From Escherichia coli (lineage in GTDB: Bacteria; Pseudomonadota; Gammaproteobacteria; Enterobacterales; Enterobacteriaceae): a stretch of DNA of 64,000 nt. Under the pieces are notes generated by a model. The model saw nothing but the letters and a program-made list of their open reading frames with translations, did not search any database and had not been told where the DNA came from. This document shows, piece by piece, positions 8,896-37,400 of the stretch. Location of the stretch: assembly GCF_001677475.2 (NCBI RefSeq), contig NZ_CP015229.1; one strand, written 5' to 3'. The number at the start of each line of letters is the position of its first letter. The first letter of the stretch is position 1. Position numbers and translations under genes: made by a program.

Positions 8896-11800
8896 TGCAG
8901 GTGTTACCCCCGAGCAGCACAGGCGGCCCGTCGCGCCTGTTTATTATGCGTCCTGTCGCCACCACGCTGCTGATGGTGGCGATCTTACTCGCCGGGATTA
9001 TCGGTTATCGCGCCCTGCCCGTTTCGGCGCTGCCGGAAGTGGACTATCCGACCATTCAGGTGGTCACGCTCTACCCAGGTGCCAGCCCGGATGTCATGAC
9101 CTCTGCCGTTACCGCGCCGCTCGAACGCCAGTTCGGGCAGATGTCCGGCCTGAAACAGATGTCGTCGCAAAGTTCCGGCGGTGCGTCAGTTATCACTTTG
9201 CAGTTCCAGCTAACATTACCGCTCGATGTCGCCGAGCAGGAAGTGCAGGCCGCGATTAACGCTGCGACCAACTTGTTGCCGAGCGATCTGCCTAACCCGC
9301 CGGTTTACAGCAAAGTGAACCCGGCAGATCCGCCGATCATGACGCTCGCCGTCACCTCAACCGCCATGCCGATGACGCAAGTGGAAGATATGGTGGAAAC
9401 CCGCGTCGCGCAGAAAATCTCGCAGATTTCCGGTGTCGGCCTGGTGACGCTTTCCGGCGGGCAGCGTCCGGCTGTTCGCGTCAAACTTAACGCTCAGGCG
9501 ATTGCCGCCCTCGGCCTGACCAGCGAAACCGTGCGCACCGCCATTACCGGCGCTAACGTCAACTCGGCAAAAGGTAGCCTCGACGGCCCTTCCCGTGCGG
9601 TCACGCTTTCCGCGAACGACCAGATGCAATCCGCCGAAGAGTATCGCCAGCTGATCATCGCCTACCAGAACGGCGCACCGATTCGTCTGGGCGATGTCGC
9701 AACTGTAGAGCAAGGTGCAGAAAACAGCTGGCTCGGCGCGTGGGCGAACAAAGAACAGGCCATTGTGATGAATGTTCAGCGCCAGCCCAGTGCTAACATT
9801 ATCTCCACCGCCGACAGCATCCGGCAGATGCTGCCACAGCTCACCGAAAGTCTGCCGAAATCGGTGAAGGTAACGGTACTTTCTGACCGCACCACCAATA
9901 TTCGCGCATCCGTCGATGATACTCAGTTTGAATTGATGATGGCTATCGCGCTGGTAGTCATGATTATCTACCTGTTTTTACGCAATATTCCGGCGACCAT
10001 CATTCCCGGTGTTGCCGTGCCGCTGTCGTTAATCGGCACTTTTGCGGTTATGGTGTTTCTCGATTTTTCAATCAATAACCTGACGCTGATGGCGTTAACT
10101 ATCGCCACCGGATTCGTGGTCGATGACGCCATCGTGGTGATCGAAAACATTTCCCGCTATATCGAAAAAGGCGAAAAACCGCTGGCGGCGGCGCTCAAAG
10201 GCGCGGGTGAGATCGGCTTTACCATTATCTCGCTGACCTTCTCGCTGATTGCGGTGTTGATCCCACTGCTGTTTATGGGCGATATCGTCGGGCGATTGTT
10301 CCGCGAATTTGCTATTACTCTGGCGGTAGCGATTTTGATCTCAGCGGTGGTGTCGCTGACCCTGACACCGATGATGTGCGCGCGGATGCTCAGCCAGGAG
10401 TCGTTGCGTAAACAGAACCGCTTCTCCCGTGCCTCGGAAAAAATGTTCGACAGGATAATCGCCGCCTATGGTCGTGGACTGGCGAAAGTGCTGAATCATC
10501 CGTGGCTGACCTTAAGCGTGGCGCTCAGCACGCTGCTGCTTAGCGTACTGCTGTGGGTGTTCATTCCGAAAGGTTTCTTCCCGGTACAGGACAACGGCAT
10601 TATTCAGGGCACCTTGCAGGCACCGCAATCCAGCTCCTTTGCCAATATGGCCCAGCGGCAACGCCAGGTCGCGGATGTGATTTTACAAGATCCGGCAGTG
10701 CAAAGCCTGACCTCATTTGTTGGCGTTGATGGCACTAACCCGTCGCTGAACAGTGCGCGTTTACAGATCAACCTCAAACCGTTGGATGAACGTGATGATC
10801 GGGTGCAAAAAGTCATCACCCGTCTGCAAACGGCGGTGGATAAAGTGCCGGGCGTCGATCTCTTCTTGCAACCAACGCAGGACCTGACCATCGATACTCA
10901 GGTCAGCCGCACCCAGTACCAGTTTACCTTGCAGGCCACGTCACTGGATGCGCTCAGTACCTGGGTGCCGCAGCTCATGGAAAAACTCCAGCAATTGCCA
11001 CAGCTTTCTGATGTCTCCAGCGACTGGCAGGACAAAGGGCTGGTGGCGTATGTCAATGTTGATCGCGACAGCGCCAGCCGTCTGGGGATCAGCATGGCGG
11101 ATGTCGATAACGCCCTGTACAACGCGTTTGGTCAGCGACTGATTTCCACTATTTATACTCAGGCTAACCAGTATCGCGTGGTGCTGGAACACAACACCGA
11201 AAATACCCCAGGCCTCGCGGCGCTGGATACCATTCGCCTGACCAGCAGCGACGGTGGCGTGGTGCCGTTAAGCTCAATTGCCAAAATTGAGCAGCGTTTT
11301 GCGCCACTTTCCATCAACCATCTGGATCAGTTCCCGGTAACGACCATCTCCTTTAACGTGCCGGATAACTATTCGCTGGGCGATGCGGTGCAGGCGATTA
11401 TGGACACCGAAAAGACGCTGAATCTACCGGTGGATATCACCACGCAGTTCCAGGGCAGCACCCTCGCCTTCCAGTCGGCGCTTGGCAGCACTGTCTGGCT
11501 GATTGTCGCGGCGGTGGTGGCGATGTATATCGTGCTCGGCATTCTGTACGAGAGCTTTATTCACCCGATCACCATTCTCTCGACGCTACCCACCGCAGGG
11601 GTCGGCGCGCTGCTGGCATTAATGATTGCCGGTAGCGAACTGGATGTGATTGCGATTATCGGCATTATTTTGCTGATCGGTATCGTGAAGAAGAACGCCA
11701 TCATGATGATCGACTTCGCGCTGGCTGCTGAGCGTGAGCAAGGCATGTCGCCGCGCGATGCAATCTACCAGGCTTGTCTGTTGCGTTTTCGTCCGATCCT

Positions 11801-12017
11801 GATGACCACTCTGGCGGCACTGCTTGGCGCGCTGCCGCTGATGTTGAGTACCGGGGTCGGCGCGGAACTGCGTCGTCCGTTAGGTATCGGCATGGTCGGC
11901 GGTCTGATTGTCAGCCAGGTGCTGACGCTGTTTACCACGCCGGTGATTTATTTGCTGTTCGACCGCCTGGCATTGTGGACCAAAAGCCGCTTTGCCCGTC
12001 ATGAAGAGGAGGCGTAA
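8895..12017 (+). CDS. mdtB: RND multidrug efflux transporter subunit
   Basis: 1040-aa ORF with 12-TM RND architecture; follows mdtA with ATGA-type overlap. Confidence 0.9.
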
Positions 12018-15000
12018 GTGAAGTTTTTTGCCCTCTTCATTTACCGCCCGGTGGCGACGATTTTACTGTCGGTCGCCATTACCCTTTGCGGCATACTGGG
12101 CTTCCGTATGCTGCCGGTCGCCCCGCTGCCGCAGGTCGATTTTCCGGTGATTATGGTCAGCGCCTCGCTGCCCGGTGCGTCACCTGAAACAATGGCGTCT
12201 TCCGTTGCCACGCCGCTGGAGCGCTCACTTGGGCGCATTGCCGGAGTCAGCGAAATGACCTCCAGCAGTTCGCTCGGCAGCACGCGGATTATTTTGCAGT
12301 TTGATTTTGACCGGGATATCAACGGCGCAGCGCGTGATGTGCAGGCGGCGATCAACGCTGCACAAAGTTTGCTGCCCAGCGGGATGCCAAGCCGTCCGAC
12401 CTATCGCAAAGCGAACCCGTCGGATGCGCCAATTATGATCCTGACGCTAACCTCCGATACTTATTCGCAAGGTGAACTGTACGATTTCGCCTCAACACAG
12501 CTTGCCCCGACGATTGCGCAAATCGACGGTGTCGGTGATGTCGATGTTGGCGGCAGCTCGCTGCCCGCCGTGCGCGTCGGGCTGAATCCGCAGGCGCTGT
12601 TTAATCAGGGCGTATCGCTGGACGACGTACGCACTGCCATCAGCAATGCCAACGTGCGTAAACCGCAGGGGGCGCTGGAAGATGGCACTCACCGCTGGCA
12701 GATCCAGACCAATGATGAGCTAAAAACCGCCGCTGAATATCAGCCGTTGATTATTCATTACAACAACGGCGGCGCGGTTCGTCTGGGTGATGTGGCGACG
12801 GTGACAGACTCGGTGCAGGATGTGCGCAACGCCGGGATGACCAACGCCAAACCGGCTATTTTGCTGATGATCCGCAAGCTGCCGGAAGCCAATATTATCC
12901 AGACGGTTGACAGCATCCGGGCAAAATTACCGGAGTTGCAGGAGACCATTCCGGCGGCGATTGATCTGCAAATTGCCCAGGATCGCTCCCCCACCATTCG
13001 CGCCTCGCTGGAAGAAGTCGAGCAAACGCTGATTATCTCGGTGGCGCTGGTGATTCTGGTGGTGTTTTTATTCCTGCGCTCGGGTCGCGCCACTATTATT
13101 CCCGCCGTTGCGGTGCCGGTTTCGCTGATTGGTACGTTTGCGGCGATGTACCTGTGCGGTTTCAGTCTCAATAATCTTTCGTTAATGGCGCTCACCATCG
13201 CTACTGGTTTCGTGGTGGATGACGCCATCGTAGTGCTGGAAAACATTGCCCGTCATCTGGAAGCGGGGATGAAACCGCTACAGGCCGCGCTGCAAGGCAC
13301 CCGTGAAGTCGGATTTACGGTGCTGTCGATGAGTCTGTCACTGGTGGCGGTGTTCCTGCCGCTGCTGTTGATGGGCGGATTGCCGGGCCGACTGTTACGC
13401 GAATTTGCCGTGACGCTTTCAGTCGCCATTGGGATTTCGTTGCTGGTTTCCCTCACGCTAACGCCGATGATGTGCGGCTGGATGCTAAAAGCCAGCAAGC
13501 CGCGCGAGCAAAAGCGACTGCGTGGTTTTGGTCGCATGTTGGTAGCCCTGCAACAAGGCTATGGCAAGTCGCTGAAATGGGTGCTCAATCATACCCGTCT
13601 GGTTGGCGTGGTGCTGCTTGGCACCATTGCGCTGAATATCTGGCTATATATCTCGATCCCGAAAACCTTCTTCCCGGAGCAGGACACCGGCGTGTTGATG
13701 GGCGGGATACAGGCGGATCAGAGTATTTCGTTTCAGGCAATGCGCGGCAAATTGCAGGATTTCATGAAAATTATCCGTGACGATCCGGCAGTGGATAATG
13801 TCACCGGATTTACCGGCGGTTCGCGAGTGAACAGCGGGATGATGTTTATCACCCTCAAGCCACGCGACGAACGCAGCGAAACGGCGCAGCAAATTATCGA
13901 CCGTCTGCGGGTGAAGCTGGCGAAAGAACCGGGGGCGAATCTGTTCCTGATGGCGGTACAGGATATTCGCGTTGGTGGGCGTCAGTCGAACGCCAGCTAC
14001 CAGTACACGTTGTTATCCGACGACCTGGCGGCACTGCGCGAATGGGAGCCGAAAATCCGCAAAAAACTGGCGACGTTGCCAGAATTGGCGGACGTGAACT
14101 CCGATCAGCAGGATAACGGCGCGGAGATGAATCTGGTTTACGATCGCGACACCATGGCGCGGCTGGGAATCGACGTGCAGGCCGCCAACAGCCTGTTAAA
14201 TAACGCCTTCGGTCAGCGGCAAATCTCGACCATTTACCAGCCGATGAACCAGTACAAAGTGGTGATGGAAGTGGATCCGCGCTATACCCAGGACATCAGC
14301 GCGCTGGAAAAAATGTTCGTTATCAATAACGAAGGAAAAGCGATCCCACTGTCGTATTTCGCTAAATGGCAACCGGCGAATGCCCCGCTGTCGGTGAATC
14401 ATCAGGGATTATCGGCGGCCTCGACCATCTCGTTCAACCTGCCGACCGGAAAATCGCTCTCGGACGCCAGTGCGGCGATCGATCGCGCAATGACCCAGCT
14501 TGGTGTGCCTTCGACGGTGCGCGGCAGTTTTGCCGGAACAGCGCAGGTGTTCCAGGAGACGATGAACTCACAGGTGATCCTGATTATCGCCGCCATCGCC
14601 ACGGTCTATATCGTGCTGGGTATCCTTTACGAGAGTTACGTACATCCGTTGACGATTCTCTCCACCCTGCCCTCGGCGGGCGTTGGGGCGCTGTTGGCGC
14701 TGGAGCTGTTCAATGCCCCGTTCAGCCTAATCGCCCTAATAGGGATCATGCTATTAATCGGCATCGTGAAGAAAAACGCCATTATGATGGTCGATTTTGC
14801 GCTTGAAGCCCAACGGCACGGTAACCTCACGCCGCAGGAAGCTATTTTCCAGGCCTGTCTGCTGCGTTTTCGCCCGATTATGATGACTACCCTGGCGGCG
14901 CTGTTTGGCGCGCTGCCGCTGGTATTGTCGGGCGGTGACGGTTCGGAGCTGCGGCAACCCCTGGGGATCACCATTGTCGGCGGTCTGGTAATGAGCCAGC

Positions 15001-29441: not shown

Positions 29442-30494
29442 TCAGGCGATAGTAATTTTGCTATCAAGATAAACGTCCTGCACGGCGTTAATCAGTTTCA
29501 CGCCGTCGGCCATCGATTTCTTGAACGCTTTACGTCCGAGGATCAGCCCCATTCCGCCTGCGCGTTTGTTGATAACCGCAGTACGCACCGCATCGCTAAG
29601 GTCAGTTTCACCGCCCGCAGCACCACCGGAGTTAATCAACCCTGCGCGCCCCATATAGCAGTTAGCTAACTGATAACGCACCAGATCAATCGGGTTTTCG
29701 CTGGTCAGCTTGCTGTACACGCGATCGTCGGTGTAGCCGTAATTAATCGCTTTATAGCCACCGTTATTTTCCGCCATTTTCTGTTTGACGATGTCCGCGC
29801 CAATGGTCGCCGCCAGATGGTTCGCCTGACCGGTCAGGTCGGCGGAAACGTGGTAATCAACGCCCTCTTTCTTAAAGGCGGAATTACGCAAATAGGCCCA
29901 CAGCACGGTCACCATGCCCAGTTCATGCGCACGTTCAAAGGCCGCAGAAATTTCTTCAATCTGGCGACGTGACTCTTCCGAGCCAAAATAGATAGTCGCA
30001 CCAACCGCCACCGCGCCCATGTTGAACGCCTGCTCCACGCTGGCATACAGCGTTTGATCGTAGGTATTCGGGTAACTTAGCGTCTCGTTGTGATTAAGTT
30101 TGACGAGGAATGGAATGCGATGCGCGTAACGCCGCGATACCGACGCCAGCACGCCGTAAGTTGACGCCACACAGTTACAGCCCGCTTCGATCGCCAATTC
30201 AACAATGTTTTTCGGGTCAAAGTAGAGCGGGTTAGCGGCAAATGAAGCTCCGGCAGAGTGCTCAACGCCCTGGTCAACGGGCAGAATAGAAAGATATCCT
30301 GTGCCAGCCAGACGCCCGGTGTTGTACAACGTCTGCATATTACGTAACACCGCAGGCGGGCGATTATTGTCAATCATCACGCGGTCTACGTAGTCATGTC
30401 CGGGGAGATAAAGCTGGTCAGAAGGAATAGTCATACAACGGTGCTGTAAAAGGTTGTCGGCGTCTTTGCCAAGCAACTGCGCAATATCTGTCAT
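29442..30494 (-). CDS. fbaB: Fructose-bisphosphate aldolase class I
   Basis: Track ORF 29442..30566; ATG at 30494 gives 350 aa starting [16 protein letters not shown]. Confidence 0.85.
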
Positions 30495-30750
30495 TACTAT
30501 GCTCCCGTAAATTCCGATTGGATATCGGCTATGGATTGTCCTGGCCCGCCTTTTGCGGGCAATCATAATCCTGGTCGTTACAGGCGAGTTTTTCCATCTT
30601 TTGGATGTTTTTTCAGCGTTTTCTGTTGGCTCGATTCATCAGAAAAAATGTTACCGCGGTCAAGTATTCACCGCAAAGGTATTTAAAAGGTATTATTAAA
30701 TGGTATTGTCATCGCGTACCTTACATTACCTGTCATGAAGGAATTAAAAG

Positions 30751-32028
30751 ATGAAAACAACAGCAAAGCTGTCGTTCATGATGTTTGTTGAATGGTTTAT
30801 CTGGGGCGCGTGGTTTGTGCCATTGTGGTTGTGGTTAAGTAAAAGCGGTTTTAGTGCCGGAGAAATTGGCTGGTCGTATGCCTGTACCGCCATTGCGGCG
30901 ATCCTGTCGCCAATTCTGGTTGGCTCCATCACTGACCGCTTTTTCTCGGCGCAGAAAGTGCTGGCGGTATTGATGTTCGCTGGTGCGGCGCTGATGTATT
31001 TCGCTGCGCAACAGACCACTTTTGCCGGGTTCTTCCCGTTACTGCTGGCCTACTCGCTAACCTATATGCCGACCATTGCGCTGACTAACAGCATCGCTTT
31101 TGCCAACGTGCCGGATGTGGAGCGTGATTTCCCACGCATTCGTGTGATGGGCACTATCGGCTGGATTGCCTCCGGTCTGGCATGTGGATTTTTGCCGCAA
31201 ATGCTGGGGTATGCCGATATCTCACCGACTAACATCCCGCTGCTGATTACCGCCGGAAGTTCTGCTCTGCTCGGTGTGTTTGCGTTTTTCCTGCCCGACA
31301 CGCCGCCAAAAAGCACCGGCAAAATGGACATTAAAGTCATGCTCGGCCTGGATGCGCTGATCCTGCTGCGCGATAAAAACTTCCTCGTCTTTTTCTTCTG
31401 TTCATTCTTGTTTGCGATGCCACTGGCGTTCTATTACATCTTTGCCAACGGTTATCTGACCGAAGTCGGCATGAAAAACGCCACCGGCTGGATGACGCTC
31501 GGCCAGTTCTCTGAAATCTTCTTTATGCTGGCATTGCCGTTTTTCACTAAACGCTTTGGTATCAAAAAGGTATTATTGCTTGGTCTGGTCACCGCTGCGA
31601 TCCGCTATGGCTTCTTTATTTACGGTAGTGCGGATGAATATTTCACCTACGCGTTACTGTTCCTCGGTATTTTGCTGCACGGCGTAAGTTACGATTTTTA
31701 CTATGTTACCGCTTACATCTATGTCGATAAAAAAGCCCCCGAGCATATGCGTACCGCTGCGCAGGGGCTGATCACGCTCTGCTGCCAGGGCTTCGGCAGT
31801 TTGCTCGGCTATCGTCTTGGCGGTGTGATGATGGAAAAGATGTTCGCTTATCCGGAACCGGTAAACGGACTGACTTTCAACTGGGCCGGGATGTGGACTT
31901 TTGGCGCGGTGATGATTGCCATTATCGCCGTGCTGTTCATGATTTTTTTCCGCGAATCCGACAACGAAATTACGGCTATCAAGGTCGATGATCGCGATAT
32001 TGCGTTGACACAAGGGGAAGTTAAATGA
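30751..32028 (+). CDS. yegT: Nucleoside:H+ symporter-family (NupG/XapB-like) transporter
   Basis: 425-aa polytopic membrane ORF; family recognised by sequence. Confidence 0.8.
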   Translation: MKTTAKLSFMMFVEWFIWGAWFVPLWLWLSKSGFSAGEIGWSYACTAIAAILSPILVGSITDRFFSAQKVLAVLMFAGAALMYFAAQQTTFAGFFPLLLAYSLTYMPTIALTNSIAFANVPDVERDFPRIRVMGTIGWIASGLACGFLPQMLGYADISPTNIPLLITAGSSALLGVFAFFLPDTPPKSTGKMDIKVMLGLDALILLRDKNFLVFFFCSFLFAMPLAFYYIFANGYLTEVGMKNATGWMTLGQFSEIFFMLALPFFTKRFGIKKVLLLGLVTAAIRYGFFIYGSADEYFTYALLFLGILLHGVSYDFYYVTAYIYVDKKAPEHMRTAAQGLITLCCQGFGSLLGYRLGGVMMEKMFAYPEPVNGLTFNWAGMWTFGAVMIAIIAVLFMIFFRESDNEITAIKVDDRDIALTQGEVK

Positions 32029-33029
32029 AAACAGAACGTATTCTCGGTGCTCTTTATGGGCAGGCGTTAGGGGATGCGATGGGGATGCCCTCCGAGCTTT
32101 GGCCACGCAGCCGCGTTAAAGCACACTTTGGCTGGATTGACCGTTTTCTGCCTGGACCAAAAGAGAATAACGCGGCCTGTTATTTTAACCGCGCCGAATT
32201 CACCGACGATACCTCGATGGCACTGTGTCTGGCGGATGCGTTACTGGAACGTGAAGGCAAGATCGATCCGAATCTGATTGGGCGTAATATTCTCGACTGG
32301 GCGCTGCGTTTCGACGCCTTTAACAAAAACGTACTAGGTCCGACCTCGAAGATTGCTCTCAACGCCATTCGCGACGGTAAACCCGTTGCTGAACTGGAAA
32401 ACAACGGCGTGACCAACGGCGCAGCGATGCGCGTCTCGCCATTAGGCTGTTTGCTTCCGGCGCGTGATGTTGATTCCTTTATTGATGATGTGGCGCTGGC
32501 GTCCAGCCCGACCCATAAATCCGATCTGGCAGTTGCAGGTGCGGTAGTCATCGCATGGGCGATTTCTCGTGCCATTGACGGAGAAAGCTGGTCAGCGATT
32601 GTTGATTCACTGCCTTCAATTGCGCGACATGCACAGCAAAAACGCATCACTACCTTCAGCGCATCACTGGCAGCACGTCTGGAGATTGCGCTGAAAATTG
32701 TGCGCAATGCCGACGGCACTGAATCCGCCAGCGAACAGCTTTACCAGGTCGTTGGCGCAGGTACCAGCACTATTGAGTCCGTTCCGTGCGCCATTGCGCT
32801 GGTTGAACTGGCACAAACCGACCCGAATCGCTGCGCCGTCCTGTGCGCTAACCTTGGCGGCGACACAGACACCATCGGTGCTATGGCGACGGCGATTTGC
32901 GGCGCGTTGCATGGCGTTAAGGCTATCGATCCTACGTTAAAGGCGGAACTGGATGCGGTAAATCAGCTTGATTTCAACCGCTATGCCACAGCGTTGGCGA
33001 AATATCGTCAACAACGGGAGGCGGTATGA
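32025..33029 (+). CDS. yegU: ADP-ribosylglycohydrolase-family protein
   Basis: 334-aa ORF overlapping yegT stop; N-terminal GALYGQALGDAMGMP and C-terminal GGDTDTIGAMA motifs typical of the ARH/DraG family. Confidence 0.75.
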   Translation: MKTERILGALYGQALGDAMGMPSELWPRSRVKAHFGWIDRFLPGPKENNAACYFNRAEFTDDTSMALCLADALLEREGKIDPNLIGRNILDWALRFDAFNKNVLGPTSKIALNAIRDGKPVAELENNGVTNGAAMRVSPLGCLLPARDVDSFIDDVALASSPTHKSDLAVAGAVVIAWAISRAIDGESWSAIVDSLPSIARHAQQKRITTFSASLAARLEIALKIVRNADGTESASEQLYQVVGAGTSTIESVPCAIALVELAQTDPNRCAVLCANLGGDTDTIGAMATAICGALHGVKAIDPTLKAELDAVNQLDFNRYATALAKYRQQREAV

Positions 33030-33991
33030 GCGGCGCTCGATTACACACGCTGCTGCCTGAATTAACCACGCGTCAGCCAGTTATGGTGATTGGCGCGGCG
33101 GTCATTGATGTGATCGCCGACGCTTATGCCCTCCCCTGGCGTGGGTGCGATATCGAACTGAAACAGCAGAGCGTTAACGTTGGCGGCTGCGCCCTGAATA
33201 TTGCCGTGGCGTTAAAACGCCTCGGCATCGAAGCGGGTAACGCCTTGCCGCTCGGTCAGGGCGTGTGGGCGGAGATTATTCGCAACCGGATGGCAAAAGA
33301 GGGCTTAATCAGCCTGATCGATAACGCCGAAGGTGATAACGGCTGGTGTCTGGCGCTGGTTGAGCCGGATGGCGAACGCACTTTTATGTCATTCAGCGGT
33401 GTGGAAAATCAGTGGAATCTCCAGTGGCTGGCGCGATTAACCGTTGCGCCTGGCAGCCTGCTCTATTTTTCCGGTTATCAACTGGCCTCGCCCTGCGGCG
33501 AATTGTTAGTGGAATGGCTGGAAGAGCTGCAAGACGTGACGCTGTTTATCGATTTTGGCCCACGTATTGGCGATATCCCGGATGCATTACTGGCGCGGCT
33601 CATGGCCTGTCGACCTTTAGTGTCACTTAATCGTCAGGAGGCTGAGATTGCCGCCGAACGTTTTGCTTTATCCGCAGAGATAACAACACTTGGCAAGCAA
33701 TGGCAGGAGAAATTTGCCGCGCCGTTGATCGTTCGTCTCGATAAAGAAGGCGCATGGTATTTCAGCAACGACGCTTCTGGCTGCATTCCGGCATTTCCAA
33801 CGCAAGTTGTAGACACCATTGGGGCGGGCGACAGTCATGCAGGTGGCGTACTTGCCGGGCTGGCCTCTGGTCTGCCACTGGCGGATGCCGTATTACTGGG
33901 CAATGCAGTGGCGTCGTGGGTTGTCGGGCATCGGGGCGGTGATTGTGCGCCAACGCGCGAGGAACTACTCCTCGCACACAAAAACGTATAG
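33026..33991 (+). CDS. yegV: PfkB-family sugar/nucleoside kinase
   Basis: 321-aa ORF overlapping yegU stop; DTIGAGDSHAGG motif near the C-terminus typical of ribokinase-family kinases. Confidence 0.75.
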   Translation: MSGARLHTLLPELTTRQPVMVIGAAVIDVIADAYALPWRGCDIELKQQSVNVGGCALNIAVALKRLGIEAGNALPLGQGVWAEIIRNRMAKEGLISLIDNAEGDNGWCLALVEPDGERTFMSFSGVENQWNLQWLARLTVAPGSLLYFSGYQLASPCGELLVEWLEELQDVTLFIDFGPRIGDIPDALLARLMACRPLVSLNRQEAEIAAERFALSAEITTLGKQWQEKFAAPLIVRLDKEGAWYFSNDASGCIPAFPTQVVDTIGAGDSHAGGVLAGLASGLPLADAVLLGNAVASWVVGHRGGDCAPTREELLLAHKNV

Positions 33992-34711
33992 ATCGCTGCG
34001 ACAGTGGCTAATGCTGTACTCAATAGGCCGTTGCTGTTGGTCAAGCGCCACTTGCTTGATCACCAGCACCGGTATTTTGCTATCTAACTGAATATGTGAC
34101 TGAAACTCGGCATCCGGCATCCGGGCGCTAACGCGGGAACGCGTACGTTGTGGGTAAATGTGCTGGCTGCGGAAATAGTCATAAAGAGAAATTCCGATGG
34201 CATCAACATCATGAATTAAATGCGCCGGAACCCACGATTCCTCAATCGATACCGCTTCTTCATCGACATAGCGAATACGCTTAAGCAAAAAGACATCACT
34301 TCCCGCTTCGACCGCCAGCTGCTGCGCGACTTCTTCGGGACATTTCACGACACGCTTGTTAACCCATAACGTATCGGGCTTTTTCCCGCGCAATACCACC
34401 TGCTGAGAAAAACCTCGCGCTTCTTTCAACGAGTATTCGAAGATGTTGTTGATCTGCGTGCCGTAACCACGCGAACGCGTCACCACACCCTCTTCTTCCA
34501 GCACCTGCATCGCCTTGCGCACCGTAATGCGCGAAACGCCGGTTAACTGACTTAAATCACGCTCACCGGGCAAAATATTGCCATGCTCCAGCACCCCGCT
34601 GCGCACGGCATTTTTTACCGTTTCGGCAAACTTGATATAAAGCGGCGTGTTATCCGTCGCTAAAATACGCTCGTTCAGTTGGGCAATCAGCTGGGTATGC
34701 GCTTGTTCCAT
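33965..34711 (-). CDS. yegW: GntR-family transcriptional regulator (UTRA effector domain)
   Basis: 248-aa ORF with N-terminal winged HTH (LPGERDLSQLTGVSRITVRKA); 3' end overlaps convergent yegV by 27 nt. Confidence 0.8.
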   Translation of the reverse strand: MEQAHTQLIAQLNERILATDNTPLYIKFAETVKNAVRSGVLEHGNILPGERDLSQLTGVSRITVRKAMQVLEEEGVVTRSRGYGTQINNIFEYSLKEARGFSQQVVLRGKKPDTLWVNKRVVKCPEEVAQQLAVEAGSDVFLLKRIRYVDEEAVSIEESWVPAHLIHDVDAIGISLYDYFRSQHIYPQRTRSRVSARMPDAEFQSHIQLDSKIPVLVIKQVALDQQQRPIEYSISHCRSDLYVFVCEE

Positions 34712-34762
34712 TTGTCTTTTTCCTGCCGGGGAGTCTGGTGGGAGTATATCACTGCTTCTTAT

Positions 34763-35581
34763 TTAAGGCGTTTCTTTAATCCCATCAACGAATGCCTGCA
34801 ACTCCTCCGCCGTGCCATTAAACACATTAAAATCCACCGGACCATTGATGCCATCTACCTGTCCACGGTCGGAATGCTGCCAGAAGCGCCAGGCCATTCC
34901 GTCATTGTCCGGACGACGTTGATAATAGTGAGCCACCCACCACGGATATTCATTGAAATAGCCCGCCAGATTCGAGTGATAAAAAACGGCTCCTGAGTAA
35001 ATAATCGGCTTTTTTCCCGTGCGTTTTTCGACCATTTTTAGCCACTGACTTACCCGCTTGCGTAATTCTTTTGCCGATAATTTTCCCCGTTCTTCTACGT
35101 CCAGCACGGCAGGGAGATCGCCGTGGGCAAAATCCACCGTTTGCAGAAATAATCGCGCCTGAACTGAAGCGGATACCGACGGGGACAAATAATGATACGC
35201 CCCGCGCAGCAGGCCATTTTCGCGGCTTAGTTGCCAGTTACGCGAAAAATAGGGGTCCACCAGCTTTTCGCCTTCCGTCGCCTTGATAAAGGCAAACTGC
35301 AAGCGAATACCGTTATCGCGCATTTTTGCCACCCGCTGCCAGTCGATTCGCTCCTGCCAGCGTGAAACATCAATACCATGAATGGTGTAACTGGCAGGAA
35401 TGCGAATAGCAAAAGATTTGACCGGACGATAACCGTAGAAGTGGATGTAGTCTTTAATCTGAATTGCTGTCGAGTAGAAAAAATTCACCGTCTGACGCGG
35501 ATAAATTGCAACGATGGAAATTAGCCCAAGAGCGCATAATAAAGCGGTGAATTTTTTTCGACTGGTGATTCTTAGCTGCAT
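34763..35581 (-). CDS. yegX: Glycoside hydrolase family 25 (lysozyme-like) protein
   Basis: Track ORF 34763..35590; GH25-like sequence with N-terminal signal/anchor. Start codon uncertain (35581 or 35590). Confidence 0.7.
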   Translation of the reverse strand: MQLRITSRKKFTALLCALGLISIVAIYPRQTVNFFYSTAIQIKDYIHFYGYRPVKSFAIRIPASYTIHGIDVSRWQERIDWQRVAKMRDNGIRLQFAFIKATEGEKLVDPYFSRNWQLSRENGLLRGAYHYLSPSVSASVQARLFLQTVDFAHGDLPAVLDVEERGKLSAKELRKRVSQWLKMVEKRTGKKPIIYSGAVFYHSNLAGYFNEYPWWVAHYYQRRPDNDGMAWRFWQHSDRGQVDGINGPVDFNVFNGTAEELQAFVDGIKETP

Positions 35582-35645
35582 TGGTTTCATCCCTGAATGT
35601 CAGCGCCAAAGACTGACAATAACCAAAGCAGCTATAGTAAGGTGC

Positions 35646-37239: not shown

Positions 37240-37400
37240 CCTGCCATAACGTGAAGAAGCAATGACCTGGTGGTCCGTGACTTCCCTACGCTGGCATTAT
37301 CCAGATCAGGTGATACGGGTATTTCTCAGCCTTCACGCAGAAGGGCACCCCGAGTCGTTTGGTTGCGATGATAAATCGCAGAGGAGGATGGTAATGTCCA
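37240..37400 (-). promoter_or_regulatory. TPP (THI-box) riboswitch in the thiM leader
   Basis: Minus-strand sequence ...ggggtgcccttctgcgtgaaggctgagaaatacccgtatcacctgatctggataatgccagcgtagggaag... matches the thiM TPP aptamer (CUGAGA and conserved helices), at ~37281-37357. Confidence 0.85.

Follow-up and report, generated by a model that had tools for sequence, protein, structure and literature searches.

The genes yegT, yegU and yegV of Escherichia coli and their regulator gene yegW (ggaR) probably, if by no means certainly, form an inducible system that takes up a non-canonical riboside and degrades or salvages it. In this model YegT would import the riboside, YegV, a ribofuranose-type PfkB kinase, would phosphorylate its 5'-hydroxyl and thereby trap the compound in the cell, and YegU, a di-metal hydrolase with the fold of the ADP-ribosylglycohydrolases (ARH), would cleave the bond at the anomeric carbon to yield ribose-5-phosphate and the aglycone. 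YegW would repress the operon through an operator with GGTAT repeats, which overlaps the promoter, and through a weaker copy inside yegT; the ligand releasing it would probably be the phosphorylated intermediate or a compound very similar to it. We infer the order of the enzymatic steps, the products, the effector and transcriptional interference at the end of the operon. New observations are that the module is conserved, that its kinase and hydrolase genes are sometimes fused and that its transporter is exchanged between loci, together with the residue patterns and the operator sequence; co-transcription, repression, two regions bound by the repressor and the lack of binding of four nucleosides by YegT were already known. 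All positions refer to the analysed window, a stretch of 64,000 nt from contig NZ_CP015229.1.

Organisation and control of the locus

According to the ORF list, yegT (30751-32028, 425 aa; NHS-family MFS transporter), yegU (32025-33029, 334 aa; ARH-fold hydrolase of the ADP-ribosylglycohydrolase family) and yegV (33026-33991, 321 aa; PfkB-family kinase of a distinct 'GGC' subfamily) are located on the plus strand, and yegW (33965-34711, 248 aa; GntR/HutC-type repressor with a UTRA effector domain) and yegX (34763-35590; membrane-anchored GH25 muramidase-like protein) on the minus strand, at the positions given in the first-pass annotation. YegX has 275 aa as the longest ORF and 272 aa in the aligned E. 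coli RefSeq record, with a start at window position 35581. The families proposed earlier (nucleoside transporter, ARH, PfkB, GntR/UTRA and GH25) were recovered with Pfam: Nuc_H_symport in YegT (608 bits), ADP_ribosyl_GH in YegU (225 bits), PfkB in YegV (189 bits), GntR and UTRA in YegW, and Glyco_hydro_25 in YegX (185 bits), all far above the gathering scores. Of 5426 complete E. coli genomes, 5420 contain the 4.84-kb block at a coverage of at least 80% and with identical gene names.

The yegT/yegU and yegU/yegV junctions, TTAAATGAAAAC and CGGTATGAGCGG, are both 4-nt ATGA start/stop overlaps, with a ribosome-binding site resembling GGGGAAG or GGGAGG upstream of each, in agreement with the proposed translational coupling. 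A 3.3-kb yegTUV mRNA was described, and YegW (GgaR) is its single-target repressor (PMC10819704). The description of yegTUV as a cryptic unit for nucleoside-like uptake and processing is also borne out, cryptic here meaning tightly repressed. However, the cluster is less unexplored than had been assumed, since co-transcription, repression, an effector and a phenotype (PMC10819704) as well as the YegT structure (PMC11979927) are already published.

At their 3'-ends, the convergent genes yegV and yegW overlap by 27 nt on both strands (33965-33991 by ORF coordinates), as had been noted from the sequence. The overlap has exactly this length in 23 loci of other Enterobacterales species (genera including Citrobacter, Enterobacter, Kluyvera, Cedecea and Pectobacterium), even where YegV identity is down to 62%, and is thus no accident of one strain. 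The pair was reported as an RNA-seq-supported excludon (PMC12288877). It is conceivable that the overlap lets induced yegTUV transcription interfere with the expression of yegW.

Upstream of yegT, a sigma-70-like promoter candidate was found on the plus strand (30667..30696; -35 TTCACC, 18-nt spacer, -10 TATTAT). It is the sole consensus match between positions 30500 and 30800, where 0.8 matches are expected by chance, and is therefore weak on its own; its -10 region lies inside a conserved block, which we propose as the primary YegW/GgaR operator (30674..30724, plus strand). This candidate consists of three GGTAT(T) direct repeats, with spacings of 11 and 13 nt, and a GTACC after them. In about 20 Enterobacterales loci the region 5' of yegT contains the block CAAAGGTATTTAAAAGGTATTATT..TGGTAT..GTACC almost unchanged, and two Vibrio species have a related form. 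The candidate operator is located within the 190-bp fragment bound by GgaR in EMSA, in a study that gives no GgaR binding motif (PMC10819704). Its 38-nt core (30678-30715) is identical at 30 of 38 positions to a second operator-like copy inside yegT (31558..31595, plus strand; ORF nt 808-845), while 300 shuffles gave at most 24 matches (mean 21.9, sd 0.9). This copy falls into probe-5 (yegT ORF nt 571-869), the second of the two binding regions, to which GgaR binds at higher protein concentration (PMC10819704). The conservation of the second copy is confounded because the same DNA encodes the conserved peptide FGIKKVLLLGL.

The module across bacteria and its active-site residues

Seventy-four loci with a YegU homologue were compared across several phyla (Enterobacterales, Vibrio, Aeromonas, Chromobacterium, Gilliamella, Lachnospiraceae and other Clostridia, Bacilli, Lactobacillales, Veillonellaceae, Sutterellaceae, Spirochaetales and Epulopiscium). 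A YegV-type kinase is encoded within three genes of the YegU homologue in 66 of them, a YegW-like GntR/UTRA regulator in 51, and the same module core is present in independent metagenome contigs. Nine of ten long homologues tested are fusions, PfkB-ARH or ARH-PfkB, in both orders. In a few Enterobacterales (Edwardsiella, some Serratia, Brenneria), the YegU homologue has no adjacent kinase or transporter. The transporter type changes between the loci (NHS in 32, NCS1 in 17, PnuC-family in 15 and ECF/ABC in about seven), and such swapping is typical of the uptake of exogenous small molecules. Facilitators of the PnuC type are known to rely on a cognate kinase that traps the substrate. No further gene family recurs beside the module in the neighbourhoods of the 74 loci, and thus its products probably enter general metabolism.

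YegT scores above the TIGR00889 cut-off (650 versus 446 bits) and contains the GVSYD motif including G311 and D315. Its crystal structure was published together with ITC measurements, in which it bound none of uridine, adenosine, cytidine and guanosine (PMC11979927). In line with the earlier statement that the substrate is undefined, full-text searches of the literature up to August 2026 yielded no paper that assigns a biochemical function to YegU or YegV, the latter still appearing in a 2025 preprint's list as an uncharacterised sugar kinase.

The nearest solved structures to YegV are ribokinases (E 3e-16 to 3e-14). Across 67 members of the YegV family D28, G53-G54, N58, N202xxE205 and GAGD269 vary little or not at all, and D28, the GG pair, N58 and D269 align with ribokinase Asp16, Gly41-Gly42, Asn46 and Asp255. 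Of these, Asp16 and Asn46 presumably bind the 2'/3'-hydroxyls of ribose. Ribokinase Asn14, Lys43 and Glu143, which we also take to be ribose ligands, correspond to Val, Cys and Ala in YegV: the Asn14 position is always hydrophobic among the 67 members and Cys55 occupies the Lys43 position in 65 of them, so that the GGK of ribokinase is replaced by GGC in nearly the whole family.

The AlphaFold2 model of YegU (pLDDT 97) gave MJ1187 (TM 0.81/0.90), ARH3 and DraG as best Foldseek matches. In the alignment with ARH3, YegU E24, D61-D62, H164 and G278-G-D-T-D-T283 correspond to E41, D77-D78, H182 and D314/D316/T317, so that the metal ligands and the catalytic Glu are kept; the His aligned to H182 does not vary within the family. 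At the positions of ARH3 F143, S148 and Y149, YegU has other residues or gaps. Since H182 presumably contacts the diphosphate, the invariant His suggests a phosphorylated substrate. If F143 and Y149 stack the adenine, as we assume, the sequence comparison suggests that YegU retains the phosphate-contact residue of ARH3 without its adenine-stacking residues.

With ribokinases as its nearest characterised relatives, YegV could also act on free ribose after hydrolysis. YegU would then cleave an unphosphorylated riboside to ribose and aglycone, and YegV would serve as a dedicated ribokinase feeding the pentose-phosphate pathway. There is some precedent in the rus loci of Bacteroidetes, where ribokinases are found with ADP-ribosylglycohydrolases or nucleoside hydrolases (bioRxiv 10.1101/574913). 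Ribokinases are also the best NCBIfam relatives of YegV, and the kinase gene precedes the hydrolase gene in some loci and follows it in others; however, YegV remains far below the ribokinase equivalog cut-offs (82 bits versus 300). Further, this order would have to accommodate the replacement of three presumed ribose ligands together with a family-wide GGC signature, the invariant His of YegU, and PnuC-type facilitators left without a trapping step. We regard it as unlikely, though it deserves more weight than the other alternatives.

Glycogen, yegX and ADP-ribosylation

The published interpretation is that yegTUV functions in the supply or handling of ADP-glucose, which GgaR senses to set glycogen accumulation. 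In EMSA, 10-100 uM ADP-glucose frees GgaR from its operator and ADP and glucose do not; a ggaR deletion resulted in two- to threefold glycogen and slower growth on glucose minimal medium, and a yegV deletion was glycogen-deficient in an earlier screen (PMC10819704). The riboside model does not predict the ADP-glucose effect or the glycogen phenotype and can accommodate them only as analogue or side effects. On the other hand, the authors state that no biochemical link of YegT, YegU or YegV to ADP-glucose was shown, the in vivo induction of yegTUV by raised glucose was only about 3-fold compared to about 30-fold in the ggaR deletion, and the effectors tried, as far as the text shows, exclude ADP-ribose and ribosides (PMC10819704). 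Moreover, neither a glycogen gene family nor any other recurs beside the module in the 74 loci, whereas vitamin- or nucleoside-type importers (PnuC, NCS1, ECF) do, and a PfkB kinase and an ARH hydrolase have no obvious reaction on ADP-glucose. A direct role in ADP-glucose metabolism thus seems rather improbable to us. The altered glycogen level might arise indirectly, for example from a side activity of the derepressed enzymes on the nucleotide pools that control GlgC.

The families, the coupling and the yegTUV unit of the first-pass annotation stand, but its inclusion of yegX in the cluster does not. The gene immediately precedes yegW on its strand at a distance of 51 nt, and the whole block is conserved within E. 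coli; in a five-gene unit YegX might, for example, free a cell-wall-derived or glycan-linked compound for YegTUV. This is very improbable, since 73 of the 74 related loci lack yegX, the exception being that of E. coli, and yegTUVW is intact without it in Citrobacter, Enterobacter, Kluyvera and E. albertii. In other Enterobacteriaceae, an ORF pair matching thiD-thiM of the annotated E. coli record comes immediately after yegW. The single ChIP target of GgaR is at yegT (PMC10819704). YegX, which has a DVE motif at residue 164 and an N-terminal hydrophobic segment, resembles phage GH25 endolysins (35-40% identity), and the GC content of yegX is about 0.48-0.51 compared to 0.55-0.57 in yegUV. We conclude that yegX is an unrelated, E. 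coli-lineage-specific neighbour outside the yegTUV-yegW module.

Least credible is that YegU de-ADP-ribosylates proteins or nucleic acids (compare DraG, Tri1 and ARH3) in an operon for stress or conflict: the ARH fold, the intact catalytic centre and a weak similarity to the DraG and Tri1 models would fit, but YegU is far below the equivalog cut-offs (80 versus 337 for DraG, 70 versus 490 for Tri1), is linked and sometimes fused to a sugar/nucleoside kinase and linked to small-molecule importers, is non-aromatic at the positions of the presumed adenine stackers, and has no ADP-ribosyltransferase in the surveyed neighbourhoods.

Comparison with known systems

YegT shares family, fold and the GxxxD protonation motif of TM10 with the nucleoside:H+ symporters NupG and XapB. 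It is about 27% identical to NupG, but the uridine-contact residues of NupG are not kept and YegT did not bind the four nucleosides in ITC (PMC11979927). YegW has its best NCBIfam similarity, below the cut-off, to PhnF, and shares the winged-helix and UTRA domains with PhnF, NagR/DasR and TreR, HutC-subfamily GntR repressors that likewise control an adjacent catabolic operon locally. Their operators have half-sites of the GGT-A/C-T type as in the candidate YegW operator, which differs from their single palindrome by its three direct GGTAT repeats and GTACC.

Like RbsK and PfkB nucleoside kinases, YegV has a PfkB fold with the GG switch, an NxxE motif and a GAGD anion hole containing the catalytic Asp, and it matches the Asp and Asn of RbsK presumed to contact the ribose 2'/3'-hydroxyls. 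It differs in the Val/Cys/Ala replacements, in a GGC signature conserved across phyla, and in scoring below every NCBIfam equivalog cut-off.

YegU has the same all-helical fold as ARH3, ARH1, DraG and Tri1 (Pfam PF03747; TM 0.72-0.81), to which it is about 20-26% identical, and agrees with them in the Asp/Thr ligands of the di-metal site, the catalytic Glu and the conserved His. Unlike them, YegU scores below the NCBIfam DraG and Tri1 cut-offs, is not aromatic at the positions of ARH3 F143 and Y149, and has its gene next to importer genes and next to, or joined with, a kinase gene, not with that of an ADP-ribosyltransferase or target protein. The closest solved structures to YegU (E 4e-30 in the sequence comparison, TM 0.81/0.90), MJ1187 (PDB 1t5j) and an ARH-related protein of Thermus thermophilus (2cwc), are structural-genomics entries for which no assigned function was found in the searchable literature. 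To our knowledge, all characterised ARH enzymes act on ADP-ribosyl conjugates and not on small ribotides, which speaks against the riboside model.

A pathway of the proposed kind exists in E. coli for pseudouridine catabolism. In psuT-psuK-psuG (yeiM-yeiC-yeiN), a nucleoside-type transporter is combined with a PfkB kinase yielding the 5'-phosphate and a glycosidase that splits this phosphorylated riboside into ribose-5-phosphate and the base. The transporter belongs to another family than YegT, and the cleaving enzyme has the PsuG fold instead of the ARH fold of YegU. The logic is the same as that proposed for yegTUV, for which we infer the order of the steps.

Gene arrangement and conservation of the yegTUV-yegW locus

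The ORF list and the gene junctions agree with the first-pass annotation, which had described five genes at this locus, the first three of them with overlapping stops and starts. The genes yegT (30751-32028), yegU (32025-33029) and yegV (33026-33991) are located on the plus strand, and yegW (33965-34711) and yegX (34763-35590) on the minus strand. For yegX the coordinates are those of the longest ORF; the 272 aa of the RefSeq-aligned E. coli record correspond to a start at position 35581 of the window. An ATGA overlap was found at both plus-strand junctions (yegT/yegU and yegU/yegV), with a purine-rich ribosome-binding site before each, and the 3' ends of yegV and yegW have 27 nt in common (33965-33991), the overlap length previously read from the sequence. 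The family assignments of that annotation are also borne out by Pfam, according to which the products, all far over threshold, are a nucleoside:H+ symporter (NHS) family transporter, a protein of the ADP-ribosylglycohydrolase (ARH) family, a PfkB kinase, a GntR/UTRA regulator and a GH25 hydrolase. In NCBIfam, no equivalog model names YegU, YegV, YegW or YegX.

Repression by YegW, co-transcription of yegTUV and the structure of YegT are already in the literature. YegW was renamed GgaR and has a single ChIP target, which is located at yegT (Saito et al. 2024, PMC10819704). The three genes yegTUV, which had been supposed to be transcribed together, give one transcript of 3.3 kb, which is undetectable in the wild type and approximately 30-fold derepressed in a ggaR deletion mutant (PMC10819704). 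The cluster had been called cryptic, and in the full-text literature to August 2026 we found no biochemical assignment of YegU or YegV; YegV is still entered as an uncharacterised sugar kinase in a 2025 preprint. Searches of the full-text literature for YegU/YegV/YegX, for ARH together with PfkB or PnuC, and for MJ1187-type proteins retrieved nothing beyond the papers on GgaR and on the YegT structure and some incidental mentions, and no assay of YegU on an ADP-ribosyl-acceptor bond. Two leads from the literature were discarded: the Salmonella PfkB kinase STM3547 (RikA) is another gene in another context, and the ARH-like enzymes of a paper on RNA ADP-ribosylation are unrelated Streptomyces proteins.

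The genes yegT, yegU and yegV are among those of E. coli without an assigned biochemical function, yet the yegT-yegX block was found with identical gene names in 5420 of 5426 complete E. coli genomes. The convergent overlap of yegV and yegW has the same length of exactly 27 nt in 23 loci of other Enterobacterales species and genera, even where YegV identity falls to 62%. It is shortened or gone in Budvicia, Tatumella and Gilliamella, and in Vibrio ruber yegW is co-directional. The gene pair is also included in the ExcludonFinder list of RNA-seq-supported convergent overlaps (PMC12288877). No convincing terminator was detected by our scan between yegX and yegW or after yegV. It is conceivable that induced yegTUV transcription interferes with yegW through the 27-nt overlap, which would amount to positive feedback.

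Some observations concern the surroundings of the locus. When the region 10000-35590 was compared to its best match among the 5426 complete E. coli genomes, the identity was only approximately 97-98% (98.1% over the yeg block and 96.6-97.1% over 20 kb), with unchanged gene order. The window probably derives from a lineage outside the sampled genomes, for example a cryptic Escherichia clade or another divergent group. At the fbaB position, the longest ORF (29442-30566, minus strand, 374 aa) has 24 more N-terminal codons than the 350-aa fbaB of the aligned E. coli record, and this extension is probably not translated. The gene fbaB is divergent from yegT and, in published Northern and qPCR experiments, was not under the control of YegW. 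On the other side, the aligned record has a TPP riboswitch annotation immediately before thiM, which would fall at approximately 37260-37400 in the window.

A candidate operator of YegW

YegW contains an N-terminal winged helix and a C-terminal effector domain (GntR, 58 bits; UTRA, 125 bits). The protein was shown to bind two fragments, one of 190 bp located upstream of yegT and one corresponding to nt 571-869 of the yegT ORF, the latter at higher protein concentration; no operator sequence was given (PMC10819704). We found a repeated element of 38 nt, with one copy at 30678-30715 (36-73 nt ahead of the yegT ATG) and the other at 31558-31595 (nt 808-845 of the yegT ORF). Each copy is located within one of the two GgaR-bound fragments. 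They agree at 30 of the 38 positions, while the best agreement in 300 shuffles was 24 (mean 21.9, sd 0.9). The upstream copy is composed of three GGTAT(T) repeats with a spacing of 11 and 13 nt, and a GTACC follows them. From Escherichia to Pectobacterium and Budvicia, the sequence before yegT contains the block CAAAGGTATTTAAAAGGTATTATT..TGGTAT..GTACC in nearly invariant form, and a related arrangement with an inverted AATACC is present in two Vibrio species. We therefore propose the shared 38-mer as a candidate YegW operator.

The sole sigma-70-like match of the intergenic region, which is of a quality occurring at chance frequency, has its -10 element TATTAT at 30691-30696, within the second repeat. 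This position would fit repression through promoter occlusion. Since the sequence 31558-31595 encodes a conserved peptide, the conservation of the internal copy is not independent evidence; this copy is treated here as bound in E. coli, as published, without independent conservation across genera.

The conserved module and its importers

The YegU-family alignment was scanned against one genome per species, resulting in 80 loci, 74 of them with a called YegU ORF; the ORFs called in these loci were compared with reference proteins. A YegV-type PfkB kinase is found at most three genes away from the YegU ORF in 66 of the 74 loci, and a YegW-like GntR/UTRA regulator is nearby in 51. The importers near the YegU ORF belong to several families: NHS transporters in 32/74 loci (Enterobacterales, Vibrio, Gilliamella), NCS1 transporters in 17/74 (Aeromonas, Chromobacterium, Bacilli, Lactobacillales, Dialister, Sutterellaceae), PnuC-family transporters, assigned by PF04973 and by TIGR01528 over its cut-off, in 15/74 (Lachnospiraceae and other Clostridia, Epulopiscium), and ECF or ABC components in approximately 7/74. 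Pfam-annotated metagenome contigs independently revealed the same module composition. Further, nine of ten long YegU homologues tested, taken from 1.84 billion representative proteins, are fusions with PfkB, four in the order kinase-hydrolase and five in the order hydrolase-kinase. The kinase-hydrolase pair is thus conserved in Proteobacteria, Firmicutes and other phyla, with repeated fusion of the two genes, and many of the organisms are gut-associated.

In a few Firmicutes loci AraC regulators stand in for GntR. When the 269 unlabelled neighbour ORFs of the divergent loci were clustered, no recurrent family emerged except these AraC-type regulators (six loci) and local synteny. Nine Firmicutes and Veillonellaceae loci in which no YegW-like regulator had been called were scanned with Rfam; nothing was detected upstream of the module, the only matches being an SRP RNA and one distant TPP riboswitch.

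The product of yegX is a putative muramidase (Pfam GH25, 185 bits; catalytic-type motif D164-V-E166) with 35-40% identity to phage GH25 endolysins, and the GC content of the gene is slightly below that of yegUV. Only one of the 74 loci, that of E. coli, contains yegX. In Citrobacter, Enterobacter, Kluyvera, Cedecea and others, two ORFs of approximately 266 and 262 aa directly follow yegW, and these have the size of the window's own thiD- and thiM-position ORFs. Based on the 74-locus comparison, we regard transporter, kinase, ARH hydrolase and regulator as the functional unit and yegX as a lineage-specific neighbour. Of the proposed five-gene cluster, yegTUV and yegW stay together as one unit, and yegX has to be taken out.

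YegT matches Nuc_H_symport (608 bits; cut-off 25.9) and TIGR00889 (650 bits; cut-off 446) over its full length, and harbours the GxxxD protonation motif, as defined in PMC11979927, in the middle of TM10 (G311-V-S-Y-D315). In the study reporting its structure at 3.1 Å, the uridine-contacting residues of NupG were not conserved in YegT, and isothermal titration calorimetry (ITC) revealed no significant binding of uridine, adenosine, cytidine or guanosine (Xiao et al. 2025, PMC11979927). The ITC data suggest that the substrate of YegT differs from the canonical nucleosides. The diversity of the importers suggests that the module acts on a nucleoside-like or vitamin-like riboside.

Several loci deviate from the common composition. 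In two Vibrio loci an extra MFS transporter gene is located between yegV and yegW (L041, 10047-11324; L042, 9893-11239), so that these loci have two different MFS transporters. In L012 (1815-3209, minus strand) and L089 (2682-5249, plus strand) a second, longer ARH-family protein of 464 and 855 aa, respectively, adjoins the kinase-hydrolase pair. Neither protein matched an NCBIfam model, and in such Firmicutes-type loci the second ARH protein may provide an extra cleavage step or another specificity. In four Edwardsiella and Serratia loci (L045, L048, L049, L056) a YegU homologue of approximately 65% identity is found beside a YegW-like regulator of 37-40% identity, with a response-regulator-like ORF (approximately 224 aa) and an ORF of approximately 488 aa on the upstream side, and in the Edwardsiella loci an ORF of approximately 459 aa on the downstream side. 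Since no kinase or transporter adjoins the YegU homologue there, these genera have a split or reduced module. Last, in L014 a PfkB-ARH fusion with an ECF transporter is followed downstream by a phosphopentomutase-like gene, an NCS1 transporter and a DeoC-type aldolase (8945-12875), which suggests that in this organism the module is tied to pentose or deoxyribose-phosphate catabolism.

Active-site residues and the predicted order of reactions

YegV is a PfkB kinase (Pfam, 189 bits) and falls below the cut-off of the RbsK equivalog (82 vs 300 bits). In 67 YegV-type members, G53-G54, N202-E205 (NxxE) and G266-A-G-D269 (GAGD) are invariant or nearly so. The ribose ligands of E. coli ribokinase are Asn14, Asp16, Lys43, Asn46, Glu143 and Asp255, of which Asn14, Lys43 and Glu143 bind ribose hydroxyls. 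In the alignment to this enzyme, D28, G53-G54, N58 and D269 of YegV correspond to Asp16, Gly41-Gly42, Asn46 and the catalytic Asp255, and Asn14, Lys43 and Glu143 are replaced by Val26, Cys55 and Ala154, which leaves the ribose-ligand set incomplete. Among the 67 YegV-type kinases adjoining YegU homologues, 65 have Cys and two have Ser at the Lys43 position, and at the Asn14 position all have Val, Met, Phe or Ile. Because they share these replacements, the YegV-type kinases form a coherent subfamily apart from ribokinase. Judged from these residues, the pocket would still recognise the 2',3'-diol and the 5'-OH of a ribofuranose, and would be hydrophobic at the positions by which ribokinase holds the remainder of the free sugar, as expected for a riboside with an aglycone.

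YegU (PF03747, 225 bits) is modelled as an all-helical ARH fold (pLDDT 97). Foldseek matched the model with probability 1.00 to MJ1187, ARH3 and DraG, and a Thermus ARH-related protein is also among the nearest structures. In the HMMER alignment to human ARH3, E24 of YegU corresponds to the catalytic E41, D61-D62 to D77-D78, H164 to H182, and D280, D282 and T283 to D314, D316 and T317; thus, the binuclear metal site and the catalytic Glu are retained. D61, H164 and D282 are invariant across 28 YegU homologues with 31-71% identity. In the ARH3-ADP-ribose structures, the adenine is stacked by F143 and Y149, and the diphosphate is contacted by S148 and H182. F143, S148 and Y149 are replaced in YegU by Asn, a three-residue deletion and Val, so the adenosine-binding set is lacking. 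If these roles hold, YegU would retain the ribose, metal and phosphate site without the adenosine site, and a 5-phosphoribosyl substrate smaller than ADP-ribose would fit.

Most likely, the cluster is a riboside operon of the type 'import, phosphorylate, cleave' with an ARH-fold hydrolase. A riboside would be imported by YegT in E. coli and by NCS1, PnuC or ECF transporters elsewhere, then phosphorylated at the 5' position by YegV and cleaved by YegU to ribose-5-phosphate and the aglycone. A serious rival is the reverse order, hydrolysis by YegU followed by YegV acting as a ribokinase. We prefer the kinase-first order because, to our knowledge, the substrates of all known ARH enzymes bear phosphate, because the YegU His aligned with H182 of ARH3 is invariant, because of the kinase pocket residues, and because PnuC-type facilitators need a cognate kinase for substrate trapping. 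The same His, the PnuC linkage and the pocket residues suggest that YegU acts on the 5'-phosphorylated riboside. A broader proposal, that YegU and YegV represent a widespread branch of the ARH superfamily acting on small molecules instead of ADP-ribosylated macromolecules, in which a dedicated riboside kinase with a 'GGC' motif (GGK in ribokinase) would supply YegU as a 5-phosphoribosyl-X hydrolase, we consider rather improbable.

All characterised ARH enzymes known to us cleave alpha-linked ribosyl bonds, which makes an alpha-riboside substrate a real possibility. Candidates could be alpha-ribazole-type nucleosides from cobamides, alpha-nicotinamide riboside, ribosyl-adenosine or ribosyl-amino-acid debris of ADP-ribosylation; if so, the operon would encode the first catabolic or salvage route dedicated to alpha-ribosides. 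The PnuC- and NCS1-type importers suggest a more ordinary variant, in which nicotinamide or nicotinate riboside would be the substrate and YegU would act as an NMN-type glycohydrolase. The isochorismatase-family genes found in or near the module in L016 and L088 lend no support to a nicotinamide route, since they reach only 26-41 bits compared to the PncA cut-off of 174.

According to the published model, ADP-glucose is the effector of GgaR and links the operon to glycogen: at 10-100 uM it frees GgaR from DNA in vitro, ADP and glucose do not, and a ggaR deletion mutant has two- to three-fold higher glycogen stores and grows slower on glucose minimal medium (PMC10819704). The EMSA is real evidence that YegW can bind ADP-glucose. 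However, induction of yegTUV by glucose in vivo is only about three-fold, far from the derepression in the mutant, and ADP-ribose and ribotides are not among the effectors reported as tried. Moreover, the comparative data connect the module with importers of exogenous small molecules, and neither glycogen genes nor any other family recur beside it. These points suggest that the published model is incomplete. In our view, ADP-glucose more likely mimics the true effector, and the glycogen phenotype may be a side effect of constitutive kinase and hydrolase, for example via nucleotide pools controlling GlgC.

With yegTUV-yegW, the best-studied bacterium harbours a well-conserved orphan pathway, for which we provide a defined candidate operator, a predicted order of reactions and a bounded set of riboside candidates not represented by the four canonical nucleosides. 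Identification of the substrate would establish a metabolic role of the ARH fold on small molecules, extend the range of nutrients or vitamin-like compounds scavenged by gut bacteria, and clarify the shift in glycogen storage and growth upon derepression of the operon. The predicted logic of import, phosphorylation and cleavage is that of the pseudouridine genes psuT-psuK-psuG, except that an ARH-fold enzyme would replace PsuG. As for an operon of the psuTKG type, co-transcription (the published 3.3-kb mRNA, PMC10819704) and co-inheritance of transporter, kinase and glycosidase are both found.
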